Source: Thermoplasmata archaeon (GTDB lineage Archaea; Thermoplasmatota; Thermoplasmata; Lutacidiplasmatales; UBA184). From it: a stretch of 64,000 nucleotides of DNA. Positions 42,268-48,318 of the stretch are shown here, one piece after another; the first letter of the stretch is position 1; every line of letters begins with the position of its first letter. The position numbers and the translations under genes are program-made. The DNA lies in the NCBI GenBank assembly GCA_027315165.1, contig DAHUYN010000004.1:15517-79516 (forward strand). The letters are read 5' to 3'. The notes under the pieces were generated by a model. It was not told the DNA's origin, made no database searches, and worked only from the letters and a program-made list of their open reading frames with translations.

Positions 42268-42777
42268 TCAGTCCATCTGACGGCGGAAGCGCTCCTCGAG
42301 CTCGCTCGCGAACCGCTTGAGCCGGTCGGCCCGGTCGGGATGGCTCGGATGGACGACCAGCTCGGCTACCTGGGCGCCGTGCCGAAGCGTCAGCCGCTCC
42401 TCGTCGGGGAGCCGCTCGTCGGGGCTCCCGTTCCAGCTGAGCCCACGGATCGACAGGCGGCGTCGAGGAAGATCCGGGTCGCGAACGATGAGGTACAGGT
42501 GCCCCCAGTGCTCCGCCCCTCGAAGCGGGATGCGCTCGAGCACGGCCCGCTTCCACGCCCGGACCCCCTCGGGCAGGTCGGTGAGCTCCCACCACGGGGA
42601 CAGGTACACGAGCGCGTACCGCTCGTACTCGAGCGCCCCGCGGATCGCCAGATCGAGGTAGCCGAGCATCATCGTCGGAGGCACGGGCGACGAGGAGGAC
42701 GACGTCTCGGTGCGCGCCGCTCCCCCGCCGGCGCCTCCGCGTTCCGGTAGGGGCTCCTCCTCAGGCATTCCCGGCAC
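42268..42777 (-). CDS. Hypothetical protein
   Basis: 169 aa. The likely real start is the internal MMLGYLDLAIRG. Natural composition. Confidence 0.4.
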   Translation of the reverse strand: MPGMPEEEPLPERGGAGGGAARTETSSSSSPVPPTMMLGYLDLAIRGALEYERYALVYLSPWWELTDLPEGVRAWKRAVLERIPLRGAEHWGHLYLIVRDPDLPRRRLSIRGLSWNGSPDERLPDEERLTLRHGAQVAELVVHPSHPDRADRLKRFASELEERFRRQMD

Positions 42778-43005
42778 ACAACCGGGTTCACCTCTTGAGC
42801 CTAGTCAACGAGAAAGACGGCCCGCCCTTCACGGGGAATGAAGGGTGGAGCGAGCGAGTGGCGGACGTCCGCACCATGGGGCTTGGACCCCGTCGCTAGT
42901 CTGCCCGCCGTCGACCCGTTGTCCTGGGGTTCGCCCCCGAAGAGGAGTTTGTCGGGTTCTGCCCGCACGCTCCACCCTGACCACCACCGAGGAGGAGGTG
43001 ATCGG

Positions 43006-43242
43006 GTGTACGTAGGCATCGATGCCCATCAACGCGACTGTCACGCCACCGTGCTGAACGACGCCGGGGAGACCGTTTCGACGGCCCGCTTTCCGACAAC
43101 CCCGAAGGCGCTCACCCAGTGGGCGGAGAGACTTCCGAAGGGATCAGTGCTCGCCCTCGAGGCGAGCACCGTGGGCCCCGTCCGACCCTGGGGGTCACCA
43201 CAAGCCAGCACTCTCCGCGAACGCTGCGGCCAGCCCCTCTAA
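43006..43242 (+). pseudogene. IS110-family transposase, N-terminal (DEDD) fragment, truncated
   Basis: A GGAGGAGGTGA RBS-like run, then GTG and VYVGIDAHQRDCHATVLNDAGETVSTARFPTTPKALTQWAERLPKGSVLALEASTV (the IS110 N-terminal signature). It diverges after EASTVG and stops at 43240-43242. Confidence 0.6.
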
Positions 43243-43371
43243 CCGTCCTTCACTCGACGCCGGCCCTTTGGTTCCTCCGCGTCGCCCTCATGGCTTTGAC
43301 GTGTACCCCGCCGGGTTGCACCGGGTGAGGGGTGCGCGGAGAGGGTGGTTCGGCCATGGGTCCAGCTCCGG

Positions 43372-44385
43372 TCATGCTTCCTTTTTCATCTTCTTCGAGA
43401 GCTCCGCGGGCGCGAGGTAGTTCAGCGAGGAGTGCGAGCACTCCTCGTTGTAGTGGCGTGGCGATGTCACCAGATGGTCTCGGGTTTCCGTGAACGGCCT
43501 CGGTGGGGGCGTCCAGAGGTAGTCCATCTTGAGGTGACCGTGGTAGCTCTCGATCATCCCGTTGTCCTCCGGCCTCTTCTTGCGGATCGCCTCCACCTCG
43601 ATCCCCCCCACCTTCATGCTCTCCCGGAACACGTGTGCGATGAACTGGCTCCCGGCGTCCGACCGCAGGACCACCCCGTCGGCGCGCAGGCACCGAGGGA
43701 ACTCCCGAGCGACCGCCGCCAGGACCACGTCGATGGCCTCGGTCGCCCCGCAGTTCGGGAGGAAGCTGTACGCCAGCACCTCGCGCGTGCAGCCGTCGAG
43801 GATCGAGGTCAGCGGGCACGGACCCCGATCGGTGGTGTCGATGTAGGTGAGGTCGGTGTACCATTTCTGGTTCGGTCGATCCGCCTCGAGGACTCCCGTC
43901 GATGGAAGACGAGGGCGAGGGAAGTGGGCCGGTCGGAGGAGCCGCTCTTCCTTCATCAGCCGGTAGACCCGCTTGCGGTTGATTGTGCGACCCTCGCGCC
44001 GGAGCATCGCCCATACCCGACGGTGACCGTACGTCACCAGCTGGAGGGCGACCCGACGGACTGCGGTCCGGGTCTCGGCCTCGTCCGGCCATCGGTGCGC
44101 GACATGAGGCCGAGGTGCACAGTAGAGGGCCCGACGAGAGATCCCGGACATCCGGGTGGCCCTCGAGAGGGAGCTGATCCCGCGCTCCCGCATCGTGGTC
44201 ACGAGCTCCCTCCGTCGTTTTTTCCCACGGTGCCCTCCAGGTGCTACCGGAGGACGTCGTTGGCGATTGCGTAATCGGCGACGAGCTTCTTCAGACGCGA
44301 GTTCTCGTGTCGGAGGGCGGTCCCCGCGCTGCCCTCGCGGTTCTTCAGTCCGACCTTCATCCCGGTGAGGGCCTTTTGCTTCCAC
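43372..44385 (-). CDS. IS3-family transposase OrfB (integrase core, rve domain)
   Basis: DDE triad context: QKWYTDLTYI, VLRSDAGSQF, EDNGMIESYHGHLK. Confidence 0.85.
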   Translation of the reverse strand: MEAKGPHRDEGRTEEPRGQRGDRPPTRELASEEARRRLRNRQRRPPVAPGGHRGKKRRRELVTTMRERGISSLSRATRMSGISRRALYCAPRPHVAHRWPDEAETRTAVRRVALQLVTYGHRRVWAMLRREGRTINRKRVYRLMKEERLLRPAHFPRPRLPSTGVLEADRPNQKWYTDLTYIDTTDRGPCPLTSILDGCTREVLAYSFLPNCGATEAIDVVLAAVAREFPRCLRADGVVLRSDAGSQFIAHVFRESMKVGGIEVEAIRKKRPEDNGMIESYHGHLKMDYLWTPPPRPFTETRDHLVTSPRHYNEECSHSSLNYLAPAELSKKMKKEA

Positions 44386-44510
44386 TCATAGAACGCTGTG
44401 GAGCTGATGCCGTGACGCCGACAGATCTCGGAGACGTTCGCTCTGGGTTGGAGGCCTTCCAGGACGACCTGGAGCTTCTCCTCGGTCGACCAGACCTTGC
44501 GGGTCGTCAT
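44244..44510 (-). CDS. IS3-family transposase OrfA (HTH / leucine-zipper)
   Basis: MTTRKVWSTEEKLQVVLEGL...ISSTAFYEWKQK...LKKLVADYAIANDVLR. It overlaps orfB by 142 nt with orfB in the -1 frame. Confidence 0.75.
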   Translation of the reverse strand: MTTRKVWSTEEKLQVVLEGLQPRANVSEICRRHGISSTAFYEWKQKALTGMKVGLKNREGSAGTALRHENSRLKKLVADYAIANDVLR

Positions 44511-44730
44511 GGATACCCCGGAGGCCGGCACGAAGCCGGCAGCCCTCTTTGAGGTTCGGTCTCCCCCCAGACCCTCCTCAGCCACCCGGGCAGGTCCAAC
44601 CTACGTACGTGTGCAGTTCTGCAGGGGTACGCGCCAGCTTCCCTGCGCTCGGCCGGGCCGGTCCCTCGGTGCTTTGAACCCTTATGAACGGCTCGGGATA
44701 GGAGCGGGTCGACGTTGCGTCGGGGGGAGG

Positions 44731-45201
44731 CTACGCCGGAGTCGTCGAAATGACGACTTCCCCTACGAGATTGAACGTCCCTGCGACCGAGGGCGTCTGG
44801 ATTGTTACAACAACTGCTTGGCAGCCCAAGCACGCCTCGCCGAATGGTGCCACGCCCGTCACAGAAAACGGTGCACCTACAGACGCATTCGCAATCGTCG
44901 CCAGGACATACTGGCCGCCTGCAGCATGCTGCGGCTGCGTCTGTCCAATCAGGGTGCAGTTGAACAATGCTCCCGGGGGGAAATCCAACGGCCCGGTCGC
45001 GTAGCAGGTGCCCGAAAGAGCCGGGAACACGAGCCCTGTCGAGTTTACCGAGACGGCCCAGACCGGGGTCCACGAGAGACTGGATACCGTCATAGAACCG
45101 GGCGATTCCGCAACGTGCTGTGCGCTGAGGATGACTAGGATCACGACCGCGCTAGCGGCGAAGCCGCCGCCAATGCCCGTCATTGTGGAGCTCCTCGGCA
45201 T
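44731..45201 (-). CDS. Small secreted Cys-containing hypothetical protein (cargo between the IS fragments)
   Basis: Signal peptide MTGIGGGFAASAVVILVILSAQHVAES. Local GC is lower. A TATA-like ATTTAGCTACTATGG lies about 35 nt upstream. A same-locus plus-strand ORF is a less likely alternative. Confidence 0.4.
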   Translation of the reverse strand: MPRSSTMTGIGGGFAASAVVILVILSAQHVAESPGSMTVSSLSWTPVWAVSVNSTGLVFPALSGTCYATGPLDFPPGALFNCTLIGQTQPQHAAGGQYVLATIANASVGAPFSVTGVAPFGEACLGCQAVVVTIQTPSVAGTFNLVGEVVISTTPA

Positions 45202-45276
45202 GTCCCTCAGGCCCCTTAGCTCACGTCCATAGTAGCTAAATCGCCTCGCCTCTAGTTGAACAATTGGTGGCCCCGC

Positions 45277-45480
45277 CTATGGATACCTGTAGCCGGAGCT
45301 TACGGTAGTCCCGACGCTGAACTCCGGATGGCCAGAAACCTCGGGGCCCCAGAATGAGGTAGCGAGGCGGTAGGTGTGCCACGAGCCGCTCCACCAGTAC
45401 GGCATAGTAGCGTTGAATGTCCCTATCGGGCCGGACAGCCCCACATACGACGGCGACCCCTGGGCTGAGTTCGTAGACAT
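45277..45480 (-). CDS. Small hypothetical Trp/Tyr-rich protein (67 aa)
   Basis: MSTNSAQGSPSYVGLSGPIGTFNATMPYWWSGSWHTYRLATSFWGPEVSGHPEFSVGTTVSSGYRYP. This is the only non-junk segment of a long shadow ORF. Confidence 0.25.
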   Translation of the reverse strand: MSTNSAQGSPSYVGLSGPIGTFNATMPYWWSGSWHTYRLATSFWGPEVSGHPEFSVGTTVSSGYRYP

Positions 45481-45546
45481 ATTCCAAATCAAAGCGGGTC
45501 CGCTTTGAAGCGGTTGCCCGTAGAAGCTGACCAAGGGCTCCTCTAG

Positions 45547-46131
45547 CTGGCCCAACTCGACCTCCCGGGGAAGCAGATCGAGGAGGTCGAGGGGCAGCTG
45601 GTCCAGCTCGGGGTCGACGACCCGGCGGTCCAGAGGCTGATGACGCTCCCTGGGCTCGACTTCTATTCGGCGCAGGTGATTCTCGAGGAGATCGGGGACA
45701 TCACACGGTTCCCGACGGAGAGGCACCTCTCGAGCTACGCGGGGCTGGTGCCGCGCGTGATGCAGAGCGGAAACACGCTGCGCATGGGCCGGATCCACAA
45801 GCAGGGACCCCGAGCCCTTCGGTGGATTCTCACGACGTGCGCCCACGCAGCGGTGAAGGCCCCCGGGAAGTTCCAGCGGCTCTTCCGGCGGTGGGAGAAG
45901 CGGCTCGGGAAGGGGAAGGCGATCGTGGCCGTGGCGCATCGGATGATCGAGGTCATCTTCGCGCTCCTCGCACGCAACGAGGCGTACTCGGAGGAGCGGG
46001 CGGAGAAGACCCACGCCAAGATCGTCCGGATGAGAAGCCGGGCGCGAGCGCTGCCGGCTCGCGACCCTGAGACACGATGGAACGCGCTCGGCGCCGAGGC
46101 CCAGCAAGTACTAAGAGGAGCGAGAGGATGA
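45547..46131 (+). pseudogene. IS110-family transposase, C-terminal fragment (no start; begins right after an in-frame TAG)
   Basis: LAQLDLPGKQIEEVEGQLVQL...LPGLDFYSAQVILEEIGDITRFPTERHLSSYAGLVPRVMQSGN...RWILTTCAHAAV is the IS110 C-terminal domain signature. Confidence 0.7.
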
Positions 46132-46222
46132 CCGCCCGTCAGCGGGCAGGACCGCTTTCAGAGGAGTGCCGGGGGCCCGAACGCTTCCGGCCCCGCATCG
46201 GCTCCCCCGAAGGCCTTAAGCA

Positions 46223-46233
46223 CCACATATGTA
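46223..46233. repeat. 11-mer CCACATATGTA (copy 1), followed by the palindrome ATGCATATGCAT, immediately upstream of vapB
   Basis: The same 11-mer recurs at 47719-47729, and again as CCACATATGT at 47731-47740. Confidence 0.3.
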
Positions 46234-46244
46234 GATGCATATGC

Positions 46245-46457
46245 ATGTCGTCGAGGAACATCGCCGTTCGCAAGGACGTCTACGACGCACTTCGCCGGGA
46301 GAGACGACCGAACGAGAGCTTCACGAAGGCCCTCCTTCGGCTGCTCAACCAGAGGGGGCCGCTCGACGACCTTGTCGGCGTCTGGCCCGAGAAGGCGCCT
46401 GCCTCAGAACACCGGCTCCTGGCGGCCTCGAGGGTCGTTACGGGCGGTCGACGATGA
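46245..46457 (+). CDS. vapB: Type II antitoxin, VapB-like (archaeal putative-antitoxin family)
   Basis: MSSRNIAVRKDVYDALRRERRPNESFTKALLRLL is the archaeal VapB-type signature. A 4-nt ATGA overlap with vapC. Confidence 0.7.
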   Translation: MSSRNIAVRKDVYDALRRERRPNESFTKALLRLLNQRGPLDDLVGVWPEKAPASEHRLLAASRVVTGGRR

Positions 46458-46864
46458 AGGCGCTCGACACCCCTGCGCTGCTCGAGATCCTTCGAGGGCG
46501 CCCGCCCGCGAAGGCGCTCCTCCGGTCGCTCGCCGGCGAGGAGCTCGCGACGACGGAGCTGAACCTCTACGAGCTCGACAGCCTCGCCCGCATCGAGGGA
46601 CCTCGAGGCCTCGAGCGGCGCCTCACGGCGATCGAGAGGCTCCGCCGCCGCCTCACGACCCTCCCGATCGACGAGCGGGCCACGCGGGCCGCCGCCGCGG
46701 TCTCGAGAGGGCACCGACGGGGCAACGCTCGTGAGCTGTCCCTCATGCTCGGAGCCGCGGTCGCCGCCGGGTGCTCCGAGTGGATCACGACCCGGTCGCT
46801 CGCGCCGACTGAGATGCCTGGGCACCTCAAACTGAGGCTGGTCGGCCAAAGGGCCACTACGTAG
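46454..46864 (+). CDS. vapC: PIN-domain toxin VapC
   Basis: MKALDTPALLEIL (LDT..L), acidic residues at ELNLYELD, PIDERAT, LMLGAAVAAGCSEWITT. 136 aa. Confidence 0.8.
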   Translation: MKALDTPALLEILRGRPPAKALLRSLAGEELATTELNLYELDSLARIEGPRGLERRLTAIERLRRRLTTLPIDERATRAAAAVSRGHRRGNARELSLMLGAAVAAGCSEWITTRSLAPTEMPGHLKLRLVGQRATT

Positions 46865-47141
46865 TGCCTATTGCGTAACTCACACTCCTACGATAGCTAT
46901 GTCGGACAAACGGAGCGCGTTTGTCAGAGGAAACGGGCGGAAACGGCCCCCGGGCGCGTTTTCGCAGGGGAGGGGCCTACCAGGGGCCTCGACGGTCGGA
47001 TCGGTGGTTGTACTAAAGAAGGGAGTCACAGCATCGATAGATACGTTCCTGACAAGGCCCAGTAGCCCATCTCACGCACTCACCTGTCGCGTAGGGCTCT
47101 CGAGCAGAAGCCGCCGAGCGCCTGCCTCTCCTCGAGAAGTG

Positions 47142-47170
47142 GTATAACTGGAGTTATACGAACCCCTTTT
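47142..47170 (+). terminator. Perfect 7-bp hairpin GTATAAC-TGGA-GTTATAC followed by gaaccCCTTTT: candidate intrinsic terminator-like element or protein-binding palindrome in the ORF-free tract
   Basis: Read directly from the sequence. T-tracts are rare in this GC-rich DNA. Confidence 0.25.
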
Positions 47171-47718
47171 CGGCCCCCGATCGCCCTCGAGAGCCCCCCT
47201 CTCTGGACGGACGGAGAGCCCGGCCAGGGCCCCTCGCACTCGACTGGGGGGCCCGAGGGGCCGCGCTCGCTCCCCGCACCCTCACCTTGCGTATCGACCT
47301 CCCCTGGCGCGGCGGCTCGCGGGGACTGTGGCGGCTACGCCGCCCGTCGCGGACTCGCCAGGACCGGGGACGCGATGTCCGCCGAGGACGACCGCGCGTC
47401 TCGCGGATCGCGCCGCGAGTTTCGACTGCCTACCGAGGTTTGCGTGTCGCCACGCCGCGTCATACGCGGTCAGGGGGAGATCACGTGGCCAGATCCCCGT
47501 CGTGAAGCCACCTCGACTCCCCTCCCTCTGCCGAGCCGTTGCGAGTGGTGAGCTCGGTCGATGGCCGTCGCGAGTTGGAGAATATGCACTCTACAGTCAC
47601 GGTGGGTGCGCAACGGTCACGACTAAGGCATCTAGATGGCTCATCGCACCATCGGCGACTCCCGTCCTCGACCCGGACCGGACGCCGGCCAACCCGGGCT
47701 TCTCGTGGCCTCCAGAGT

Positions 47719-47743
47719 CCACATATGTATCCACATATGTGGA
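47719..47743. repeat. CCACATATGTA tCCACATATGT gga: tandem copies of the 11-mer seen at 46223; the second copy is embedded in the perfect palindrome TCCACATATGTGGA
   Basis: It lies just downstream of the stop of the minus-strand GNAT gene, at the right edge of the 880-bp ORF-free tract. Confidence 0.3.
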
Positions 47744-47751
47744 GTCGTAAC

Positions 47752-48318
47752 CTACGTTCGCGTACGCGTCTTTCGCGCTCGTTGCCACTCCCGCTTGAGC
47801 AGGCCGAAGACGAGGTCGTCGCGGGCGACACCGTCCTTGACGATCGCGCCTCGAAGCCGTCCCTCGAGGCGGAAGCCCGCCTTTTCCAAGACGTGCGCGG
47901 AGCGGTCGTTGCCGGGGAAGGTGCCCGCCTCGACGCGCTCGAGCGCGAGGGGTCCGAAGGCGAGCTCGAGCAGGCCCTCCAACATCTCGCTCGCGTAGCC
48001 GTGGCCCCAGTGCCGCACGCCCAGCCAGTAGCCCGCCTCGCCCCGCCGGTGCTCACGGTGGATCTCGTGCAACGACACGCCGCCGACCAGACGACCGCTC
48101 GAGCGCTCGATCGCCCACAGGGACAGGGCTTGACCGCGCCGGTGCTTGAGGCGCGTGCGCGCGAGCCACTCACGCTCCTGCGAGAGGGTGAGCGGATAGG
48201 GTACACCGAGGAGCCATCGAGAGACCCGGCGGTCCCGAAGCATCGCGTAGGCCTCGGGGAGGTGCCGCTCGCCCGGTCTCTCGAGACGAAGGCGCGCGAG
48301 CTCTCGAGGAAGTCTCAC
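47752..48318 (-). CDS. GNAT-family N-acetyltransferase (RimJ/RimL-like)
   Basis: 188 aa with a GTG start. ...GEAGYWLGVRHWGHGYASEML... (acetyl-CoA motif A) and ...HVLEKAGFRLEG.... Confidence 0.8.
   Translation of the reverse strand: MRLPRELARLRLERPGERHLPEAYAMLRDRRVSRWLLGVPYPLTLSQEREWLARTRLKHRRGQALSLWAIERSSGRLVGGVSLHEIHREHRRGEAGYWLGVRHWGHGYASEMLEGLLELAFGPLALERVEAGTFPGNDRSAHVLEKAGFRLEGRLRGAIVKDGVARDDLVFGLLKREWQRARKTRTRT

Follow-up and report, generated by a model that had tools for sequence, protein, structure and literature searches.

A nested insertion-sequence scar with a missing IS110 recombinase middle in a Thermoplasmata-like archaeon

Organization of the Locus

The window (the whole 64-kb stretch of DNA that was analyzed) contains a nested insertion-sequence scar that includes IS110 recombinase sequence lacking its middle. 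The scar, at 42801-46168, is one insertion in a 150-bp spacer bounded by a hypothetical gene and a vapBC toxin-antitoxin pair. Its features and left flank are as follows:

42791-42800, no strand: left flank of the insertion point, CCTCTTGAGC, a motif kept in the empty sites of two related genomes
42801-43005, plus strand: non-coding left end (LE) of a lineage A element of the IS110 family, starting CTAGTCA; 205 bp upstream of the GTG start at 43006
43006-43172, plus strand: first 56 codons of an IS110 recombinase, lineage A (VYVGIDAH...ALEASTV), from tblastn and DNA alignments
43173-43296, no strand: left 124 bp of the filler, with no relation to either IS110 or IS3
43293-43296, no strand: left copy of the IS3 target-site duplication GCTT, read from the sequence
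43297-44636, minus strand: IS3-family element, 1,340 bp, from Pfam domains, with ends from alignment with L004, L005, and L006
44637-44640, no strand: right copy of the target-site duplication GCTT, read from the sequence
44641-45546, no strand: right 906 bp of the filler, of reduced GC, from composition and alignment with the reference IS110 element
44731-45201, minus strand: cargo gene, from distant homologues and an N-terminal hydrophobic helix
45547-46131, plus strand: final 194 codons of a lineage B IS110 recombinase (Transposase_20), from Pfam and amino acid and nucleotide identity
46132-46168, plus strand: IS110 right end (RE), lineage B, ending ...CTTTCAGAGGAGTG, the point at which the sequence common to L088, L089, and L090 ends and their flanks diverge

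Read from left to right, 372 bp of the left part of a lineage A IS110 element are followed by 124 bp of filler and the IS3 element. Beyond the IS3 element come 906 bp of filler with one small foreign gene and then 622 bp of the right part of a lineage B IS110 element. An earlier, sequence-only reading of this DNA had reported IS110 pieces, an IS3 element and DNA of no recognized kind. All of these are present, with some coordinates corrected here.

The case for a single insertion rests on two related genomes (L093 and L103), in which the same flanking genes border the same spacer, empty of insertion sequence. In an alignment of both with the joined flanks of the block (42640-42800 fused to 46169-46290), the spacer minus the block measures 150 bp, versus 149 bp in L093. 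The motif C(C/T)TCTTGAG(C) stops exactly at the junction, and conserved CTCTTGAGC ends at 42800. The outer boundaries of the block are exactly the native IS110 ends, brought together at this one empty-site point, and the gene in the interior is apparently intact. To see whether the two pieces flank one target, a shared target or duplicated core was also sought in the flanks of 13 IS110 copies. Those flanks are unrelated, and it is the empty sites that settle the question.

Two Pieces from Two IS110 Lineages

The reference for the IS110 pieces is an element of 1,376 bp encoding a 377-aa recombinase, found in three contexts at 99.7-99.9% identity. Its termini, CTAGTCA... and ...AGAGGAGTG, occur in 13 copies and there are no terminal inverted repeats; the ends CTAGTCA and AGAGGAGT(G) are common to all copies of the family represented in the block.

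DNA identity of the left piece to full-length elements spans 42801-43172. Both tblastn and DNA alignments lose IS110 homology at 43172-43174, directly after ALEASTV, placing the true end at 43172/3. The N-terminal DEDD fragment that the sequence-only reading had drawn at 43006-43242 is real IS110 sequence up to that point, but 43174-43242 is read-through into unrelated DNA. What remains covers only profile positions 1-41 of 155 of the Pfam domain DEDD_Tnp_IS110 (PF01548) and scores 23 bits against a cut-off of 29. The stub is nevertheless 92-94% identical at the nucleotide level to full-length elements whose proteins carry PF01548; over the coding part it is 92-94% identical to lineage A copies and 80% identical to lineage B. 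Judged by alignment to homologues, the stub would retain the first D and the E, and no other DEDD residue. A protein search for closer relatives of the N-terminal stub returned none above 80%; lineage A itself was found by a DNA-pattern scan of metagenomes. Other truncated left ends of this IS110 family also occur in metagenomes (L101, P0124, and P0128).

The right piece is open from 45547 to its stop codon, contains a 163-aa ATG-started ORF from 45640 and is followed directly by the 37-bp RE. Transposase_20 (PF02371) matches 45547-46131 at 80.2 bits against a cut-off of 21.3, in agreement with the C-terminal IS110 fragment proposed earlier. The piece is 97.4% identical in amino acids to two 377-aa proteins (P0110 and P0114) and 98.4% identical in nucleotides to L088-L092. 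Alignment with the reference element puts the right-hand breakpoint within 45538-45547, with an in-frame TAG at 45544-45546. Between the two pieces, element positions 373-754 are absent, that is, 382 nt or codons 57-183 of the 377-aa protein. The sequence-only reading had estimated this gap at about 120 aa, and the alignment to full-length elements upholds it. Homologues carry KKKTDAIDS in the lost middle, and we infer that two of the four DEDD residues lie there. With the middle gone, the locus can make no IS110 recombinase.

Do the two pieces come from a single gene? Identity of the left piece is 91.6-94.1% with lineage A (L096, L097, L099, and L100) and 85.5% with lineage B. For the right piece it is 98.4% with lineage B (L088-L092) and, measured on the one full-length A copy, 73.9% with lineage A. 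The lineages themselves are 82.7% identical over the left, 76.1% over the middle and 75.0% over the right part. Lineage-diagnostic sites divide in the same way. On the left arm 39 of 47 are A-type, 6 are B-type and 2 are neither; on the right arm 148 of 150 are B-type, with 1 A-type and 1 neither. An A-type left piece and a B-type right piece are not halves of one gene, and the IS110 sequence at the locus appears to be a chimera of two elements. This goes against the main interpretation offered earlier, of one IS110 gene split in two. The second option of the same reading, recombination between two IS110 copies, fares better in that two lineages are indeed involved. Its caveat that the fragments might come from different IS110 subfamilies is borne out in part, at the level of lineages A and B. 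Among the IS110 copies fetched, neither a tandem A-B arrangement nor a natural A/B hybrid was seen.

The IS3 Element

The ends of the IS3 element were defined against three Thermoplasmata copies. On the plus strand they read TGACGTGTACCCC... and ...GGGGTACGCGCCA, and they form imperfect inverted repeats of the TG...CA type (IRL TGGCGCGTACCCC and IRR TGACGTGTACCCC, reverse complement). Both genes lie on the minus strand, orfA matching HTH_Tnp_1 (61 bits) and orfB matching HTH_21, rve, and rve_3 in Pfam. The closest copies, in Thermoplasmata MAGs, are 72-79% identical in amino acids.

The orfA gene begins with the ATG at 44510 and is cut off early by a TAG at 44244-44246. A slippery heptamer, A_AAA_AAC, follows at 44223-44217, and orfB is in the -1 frame, open over 44385-43372. 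In three relatives (L003, L004, and L005) the heptamer is in phase with orfA. The TAG sits 21 nt upstream of it, where relatives have GAG or GAA, and it is also present in an independent Logan contig (L001); TAG is used more often than any other stop codon in the window. With a stop ahead of the heptamer, the OrfAB fusion should not form, and this IS3 copy is probably dead. The sequence-only reading had called the element complete-looking; it does look so, but its orfA is cut short before the frameshift site.

A perfect GCTT on both sides of the element lies within the filler. This implies that the filler was continuous before the IS3 element arrived, and that the element entered the ~1,030-bp filler, not the IS110 gene. 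The earlier proposal that an IS3 insertion had split that gene does not hold. One point of caution is that the two full relatives whose flanks were read (L004 and L005) have no target duplications. The GCTT match could therefore be due to chance, with a risk of about 1 in 256.

Filler and Cargo Gene

The filler totals 1,030 bp (43173-43296 plus 44641-45546) at 62.7% GC, compared with ~70% in its surroundings, as expected from the lower-GC DNA noted earlier between the IS110 pieces. Its left part had zero matches among all fetched loci, and DNA resembling the filler was absent from viral contigs, plasmids, the fetched loci and the rest of the window. Two of its peptides, EFVDIF and ALKRLP, resemble IS110 homologues and raised the idea that it is a degraded IS110 middle. 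Local alignment of the filler to the 382 missing bases scored at the level of shuffled controls, and the idea was rejected. No microhomology accounting for the two IS110 breakpoints was found.

The cargo gene encodes a protein of 150 aa from an ATG at 45183, preceded by GAGGAG, or of 156 aa from 45201. An A/T-rich box, TTTAGCTA, lies at 45233-45240. The cargo gene has a GC3 of 0.70, whereas host genes have 0.87-0.94. The exact protein (P0095) is on record from one locus only, in a cluster of one member, and HMMER returns nine proteins at E <= 0.001, the query counted. Of these, seven are short (133-163 aa) and share conserved W, C, and PPF/CxxC motifs, and another is a repeat protein of 913 aa. 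Pfam gave no match to the protein. An AlphaFold2 model (pLDDT 79.9) places a Cys-containing, all-beta domain after an N-terminal hydrophobic helix, for which a Foldseek search of the PDB returned nothing significant (best E 0.02, TM < 0.3). There is one real gene in the filler, for a predicted membrane-anchored beta-sandwich protein of a small orphan family. Two small ORFs had been suggested here. The homologues and the hydrophobic helix support the 150/156-aa one, whereas exact look-up of the second (45236-45487 or 45277-45480) found no called protein on record.

A Structured RNA at the Left End

The LE carries a structured RNA, conserved among copies, which is a bridge RNA candidate. Ten left ends share a mean identity of 92%. 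In a structure specified for these ten, 95.2% of cells pair and 5 pairs covary, a level of covariation reached in 2 of 500 shuffles; slid controls pair at 35-54%. The closing helix would pair 42843-42856 with 42964-42977. An alternative from RNAalifold (columns 49-57 with 111-120) was set aside, being broken by L095. The long-range helix 43-56:164-177 is preferred because compensatory changes preserve it. Two short repeats are also present. The final bases of the RE recur in sense orientation as the 8-nt AGAGGAGT (LE positions 141-148), and the LE start recurs as CTAGTC (LE positions 96-101).

The LE has no match in Rfam. The whole window was scanned against Rfam at the gathering threshold, 42500-46400 and 46850-47760 were scanned against it by E-value, and tRNAs were also sought; none of these gave a meaningful hit. 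No loop of the candidate bridge RNA was matched to target or donor, and the flanks of identical copies differ.

How the Locus May Have Arisen

On balance, the block is probably a decayed pile-up at one point in the spacer, with an A-type piece at the left, filler and the IS3 element inside, and a B-type piece at the right. We infer the order and mechanism by which the IS110 elements came to share the site and lost their interior. Two related lineages would have met at one site, either by insertion of one beside the other or by homologous recombination producing an A/B hybrid. In the case of adjacent insertion, the second element may have been guided there by recognizing shared element ends; for IS621, the donor-end halves of IS110 sites alone are reported to be enough to drive recombination (bioRxiv 10.64898/2026.08.31.748434). 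An illegitimate deletion/insertion could then have removed element positions 373-754, and more if the elements were in tandem, leaving ~1 kb of lower-GC foreign DNA in place of the IS110 interior. The IS3 element next transposed into this filler, with duplication of GCTT, and the nonsense mutation in its orfA came after that.

What if the two pieces did begin as one element? A single IS110 copy might have been split in place with loss of its middle, its left arm being converted later from an A-type copy elsewhere, over a tract ending at the filler. The pieces do share an orientation and flank one empty-site point, and the 6 B-type sites among the 47 on the left arm would fit. In addition, the left breakpoint comes directly after a block of ~25 nt that is the best-conserved part of the IS110 gene and common to all lineages, so gene conversion (or an assembler) could switch copies there and the A/B switch could match the filler boundary. 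However, the lineages are only ~83% identical over the left arm, a poor substrate for conversion, the arm is A-type throughout, first bases included, and an A-type donor is absent from the window. We regard this history as unlikely. The position of the breakpoint beside a block found in all lineages also bears on whether the contig is an assembly chimera, in which the host flank and IS110-A positions 1-372 of one strain were joined to the rest from another, at the conserved block or within the IS3 element. Assemblies of two independent runs contain the right-hand junctions at 99.9-100% identity, and the right IS110 piece was recovered in Logan contigs from two sequencing runs; these and the NCBI contig with the cargo all represent the same locus. 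For the left junction (43172/3) and the full IS3 orfB, the record is a single NCBI MAG contig of 161,847 bp, the only source of the exact proteins encoded by the left-junction ORF (43006-43242) and by orfB. Exact look-ups of several ORF variants returned the source contig alone, and both Logan contigs break within the IS3 element, at 43566 and 44418. Such a mis-join is nonetheless quite improbable. GCTT on both sides of the IS3 element ties the left filler to the right filler, host synteny runs on at both sides in agreement with L093 and L103, and a shared block of 25 nt would be short for mis-joining relative to the usual final k-mer sizes.

A different idea is that the block was never pieced together at this site. 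It could be a non-autonomous IS110 derivative, with an LE and its guide RNA, an RE and, where the recombinase would be, a passenger gene, inserted as a unit by recombinase supplied in trans from intact copies. Such a unit would be a natural bridge-RNA system carrying cargo, in an archaeon. Native IS110 ends bound the block at its single insertion point, both ends have the family-wide terminal sequences, and the left-end RNA looks structurally intact. Yet the cargo protein and the composite come from one locus only, with no second copy or site in the DNA searched, and the IS3 insertion and stop codons indicate decay. In-place decay accounts for the same facts, and insertion as a cargo-bearing unit seems very improbable. 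The preferred reading remains a pile-up of A-type and B-type pieces that decayed where it lies.

Relationship to Known Elements

The IS110 group comprises bridge-RNA-guided DEDD recombinases such as IS621 (Durrant et al. 2024, PMC11208160), and its members have no terminal inverted repeats and a left end much longer than the right (PMC11208160). The pieces in the block resemble this group in the Transposase_20 domain, in a partial match to DEDD_Tnp_IS110 that falls below the cut-off, in having no terminal inverted repeats and in the lengths of their ends (LE 205 bp, RE 37 bp). The likeness may extend to the putative RNA, since the structured LE region holds a sense copy of the right-end terminus in the polarity described for the left donor guide. 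Unlike members of the group, the copy in the block is a two-lineage chimera without codons 57-183 that cannot encode a recombinase, and its LE RNA matches no Rfam family. There is also a difference from IS621, for which strict target choice is reported, in that near-identical intact copies of this IS110 family lie in unrelated flanks. The observation is relevant to the stringency of target choice in this branch.

The IS3 element is like IS911 and IS150 in its length of 1,340 bp, its imperfect TG...CA inverted repeats and its 4-bp target duplication. It is also typical in that orfA carries HTH_Tnp_1, orfB carries the rve DDE core in the -1 frame, and A_AAA_AAC is in phase in relatives. It departs from the programmed -1 frameshift of that family in that orfA ends at a TAG 21 nt before the heptamer, and its host is an uncultivated Thermoplasmata-like archaeon.

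The locus is a mobile-element graveyard, a product of ordinary genome decay, and not a new system. Like other prokaryotic "IS graveyards," it has truncated elements, elements inside other mobile DNA and hybrid ends of related copies; unlike them, its outer ends are native element ends at one empty-site point and its orphan gene is apparently intact. Comparison demonstrates its anatomy, the single insertion point, the differing lineages, the clean IS3 insertion and the nonsense codon. It has little general significance. It illustrates the accumulation and decay of such elements at a single site. The two IS110-family lineages and the IS3-family element were previously uncatalogued, and come from uncultivated, high-GC, Thermoplasmata-like archaea. 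The 10 left ends with their covariation-supported structure could seed a model of archaeal bridge RNA. A by-product is the small orphan family of predicted membrane-anchored beta-sandwich proteins.

Layout of the Locus

The locus is an ordinary, neatly resolvable insertion-sequence scar. Comparisons show one insertion point, element ends from two IS110 lineages (A and B), replacement of the element interior by foreign DNA (the filler, 43173-43296 and 44641-45546), and an IS3 that inserted cleanly and later acquired a nonsense mutation. The features that a sequence-only reading had placed at 42778-46131 (IS110 ends, IS3 orfA/orfB and lower-GC filler) are present according to Pfam and alignments.

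Features of the locus (window positions)
42801-43172, IS110 left piece, element positions 1-372
42838-43242, plus strand, ORF with DEDD_Tnp_IS110 (Pfam, short match, profile positions 1-41 only, 23 bits)
43297-44636, IS3 element, 1,340 bp, orfB side to orfA side; alignments stop there
43372-44385, minus strand, orfB with HTH_21, rve and rve_3 (Pfam)
44244-44585, minus strand, orfA with HTH_Tnp_1 (Pfam)
44731-45183/45201, minus strand, cargo gene, the only convincing gene in the filler
45547-46168, IS110 right piece, element positions 755-1376
45547-46131, Transposase_20 (Pfam, 80 bits)
46235-46864, VapB/PIN pair, downstream of the IS110 C-terminal piece

The Pfam scan gave no match for two small minus-strand ORFs between the IS3 and the IS110 C-terminal piece. 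No second copy of any block sequence occurs in the 64-kb window, and neither tRNA genes nor Rfam matches at gathering threshold were found.

Two IS110 Lineages at One Site

The same neighbours (phosphodiesterase, hypothetical gene, vapB/PIN) are found in two loci of related species, L093 (~80% nucleotide identity) and L103 (~73%), with no insertion sequence between them in either. Without 42801-46168, the spacer in the window measures 150 bp, compared with 149 bp in L093, and the conserved motif C(C/T)TCTTGAG(C) terminates exactly at 42800. Therefore, the outer block boundaries are native IS110 ends at one site.

The 163-aa C-terminal ORF shares a 90%-identity protein cluster with full-length 377-aa proteins, whose contigs supply a reference element, here termed lineage B. 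It is 1,376 bp long, and copies 99.7-99.9% identical lie in three different contexts (L088 4964-6339, L089 906-2281 and L090 380-1755; L091 is the same locus as L088). It begins with CTAGTCA, ends with AGAGGAGTG, and has non-coding ends of 205 bp (left) and 37 bp (right), the layout described for the IS110 group (PMC11208160). Homology to IS110 ends on the left at 43172-43174, directly after ALEASTV, and begins on the right at 45547 (45538 when a 6-nt deletion is permitted). Element positions 373-754 (codons 57-183) are missing, as the sequence-only reading had anticipated for the middle of the protein, and the filler has no significant similarity to these 382 bases.

The two pieces had been taken for halves of one gene, with a recombination between two IS110 copies as the alternative. 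Aligning them with full-length IS110 transposases defined the missing segment and put them in different lineages. Identity to lineage B is 85.5% (nucleotide) for the left piece and 98.4% for the right; against the same lineage B proteins it is 73-80 and 97.4% (amino acid). Scanning metagenome contigs with a conserved left-end motif recovered lineage A (L096, full length, and L097, L098, L099, and L100). The left piece is 91.6-94.1% identical to this lineage, whereas identity between the right piece and the corresponding part of L096 is only 73.9%. The lineages themselves share 82.7, 76.1, and 75.0% identity in their left, middle and right regions. Of 47 sites that tell A from B in the left piece, 39 are A-type (six B, two neither); in the right piece, 148 of 150 are B-type. 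The block is therefore a chimera of a lineage A left part and a lineage B right part.

Truncated left ends of this family also exist elsewhere (L101 5402-5576; proteins P0124 and P0128). One such stub holds left-end positions 1-177 only, and the others carry the left end plus 20-30 codons and then unrelated sequence. As their breakpoints differ, such stubs appear common. Copies of this family also often adjoin other transposase genes, DDE_3 (IS630-like) or ISAZ013-like (L089 2359-3420; L084 1947-3104; L088 3027-4238), suggesting that insertion sequences cluster in these archaeal genomes.

The IS3 Element

For orfB, the nearest relatives (72-79% amino acid identity) are in Thermoplasmata MAGs, which also hints at the taxon of the window. 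The element ends were set by DNA alignment with L004, L005, and L006. Its imperfect inverted repeats are TGGCGCGTACCCC and TGACGTGTACCCC, with tips TG...CA. GCTT abuts both ends (43293-96 and 44637-40), so this was a simple insertion into filler that was continuous beforehand. Between the left IS110 breakpoint and the nearer IS3 end are 124 bp, and 910 bp separate the farther end from the right breakpoint. The IS110 gene is not broken by the IS3, contrary to the earlier claim. Next to one IS3 end (43286-43296) the sequence is CCTCATGG(CTT), and CCTCATGG recurs at L004 3490-3499 beside the related copy; this may be a target preference of the IS3 lineage or a coincidence.

The element had seemed complete. 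Both ends and both genes are there, but orfA is cut short. In L003, L004, and L005, orfA passes through a phased A_AAA_AAC heptamer and ends shortly after, the usual IS3 arrangement, whereas the window copy stops before it: TAG at 44244-44246 replaces the relatives' GAG or GAA, 21 nt upstream of the heptamer. The same TAG is in L001, an independent Logan contig, and TAG is the most frequent stop among likely window genes (16/30). OrfAB production is therefore unlikely, and from its sequence this copy is probably unable to make the transposase.

Proposed Origin of the Chimera

How did A and B come to share a site? One might have inserted beside the other through shared element ends; for IS621, donor halves on their own are reported to drive recombination (bioRxiv 10.64898/2026.08.31.748434). 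Alternatively, homologous recombination could have produced an A/B hybrid. A subsequent illegitimate deletion/insertion would then have swapped out the IS110 interior.

As the main caveat, the left junction (43172/3) may instead reflect an assembly switch or gene conversion, since the left breakpoint directly follows the most conserved block of the IS110 gene. An assembly switch would also fit the record, as this junction and the complete orfB are found only in the 161,847-bp NCBI MAG contig; the Logan contigs, assembled from runs SRR13766252 and SRR10333326, cover only 43566-47395 and 44418-47370. The GCTT duplication is an argument for treating both parts of the filler as one unit. L001 and L002, these two Logan contigs, both end at 47370-47395, which may be a repeat or coverage boundary, and their opposite ends break within the IS3.

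The Filler and its Cargo Gene

Without the IS3 and one GCTT, the filler is 1,030 bp with 62.7% GC (window ~70%), and no match to it was found among the fetched loci, viral contigs or plasmids. Of the two small ORFs proposed here, one is a convincing gene with homologues and the other has no called protein on record by exact look-up. The cargo protein has 150 aa, or 156 aa from an upstream ATG, and its exact sequence is recorded from this locus only. HMMER against 1.84 billion representatives found nine proteins at E ≤ 0.001, query counted: the homologues comprise seven small proteins (133-163 aa) and a 913-aa repeat protein. When the query is aligned with the seven small ones (n = 8), two Trp and three Cys residues and a PF pair are conserved. 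In the AlphaFold2 model (pLDDT 79.9), a helix at the N-terminus precedes an all-beta domain, and the PDB gave no significant match. The gene's GC3 (0.70) is below that of host genes (0.87-0.94), taken here as a sign of foreign origin. One homologue (L086) has other small membrane proteins as neighbours and no insertion sequence close by.

GAGGAG precedes the ATG at 45183, and the TATA-like box suspected earlier corresponds to the A/T-rich TTTAGCTA ~50 nt upstream. It varies at 45238 (L001 position 2158, SRR13766252), where a minus-strand T to C change turns TTTAGCTA into TTCAGCTA.

A Candidate Bridge RNA

The left ends (n = 10) have a mean identity of 92%, above that of coding regions. In an analyst-specified structure of four helices, columns 43-56 pair with 164-177 to form the long closing helix, columns 60-67 pair with 102-109 in the inner one, and the other two are hairpins. 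It leaves 95.2% of cells paired; slid controls gave 35-54%. Five pairs show compensatory changes, a count matched by only 2/500 shuffles. Positions 141-148 are AGAGGAGT, identical to the right-end terminus in the same sense, the polarity of the IS621 left donor guide (PMC11208160), and positions 96-101 (CTAGTC) are identical to the left end's own start. The L088, L089, and L090 copies are near-identical, left-end RNA included, yet their flanks are unrelated, and neither a common target nor a duplicated core is obvious in them. Copies guided by a bridge RNA to an 11-14-nt target would not be expected to look like this. For this reason, and because target loops are unassignable, the RNA is only a candidate bridge RNA.

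Conserved Sites Downstream

The palindromic A/T-rich ATATGTAGATGCATATGCAT at 46228-46248, directly upstream of vapB, is kept in the window, L093 and L103, unlike the remaining spacer, and is likely a vapBC promoter or operator. Further on, 47126-47166 (41 nt) is 100% identical to L093, although identity in adjoining DNA is only 72-80%. An AT-rich hairpin, GTATAAC-TGGA-GTTATAC, lies inside this stretch, which has no Rfam match and may be a regulatory site or small RNA.
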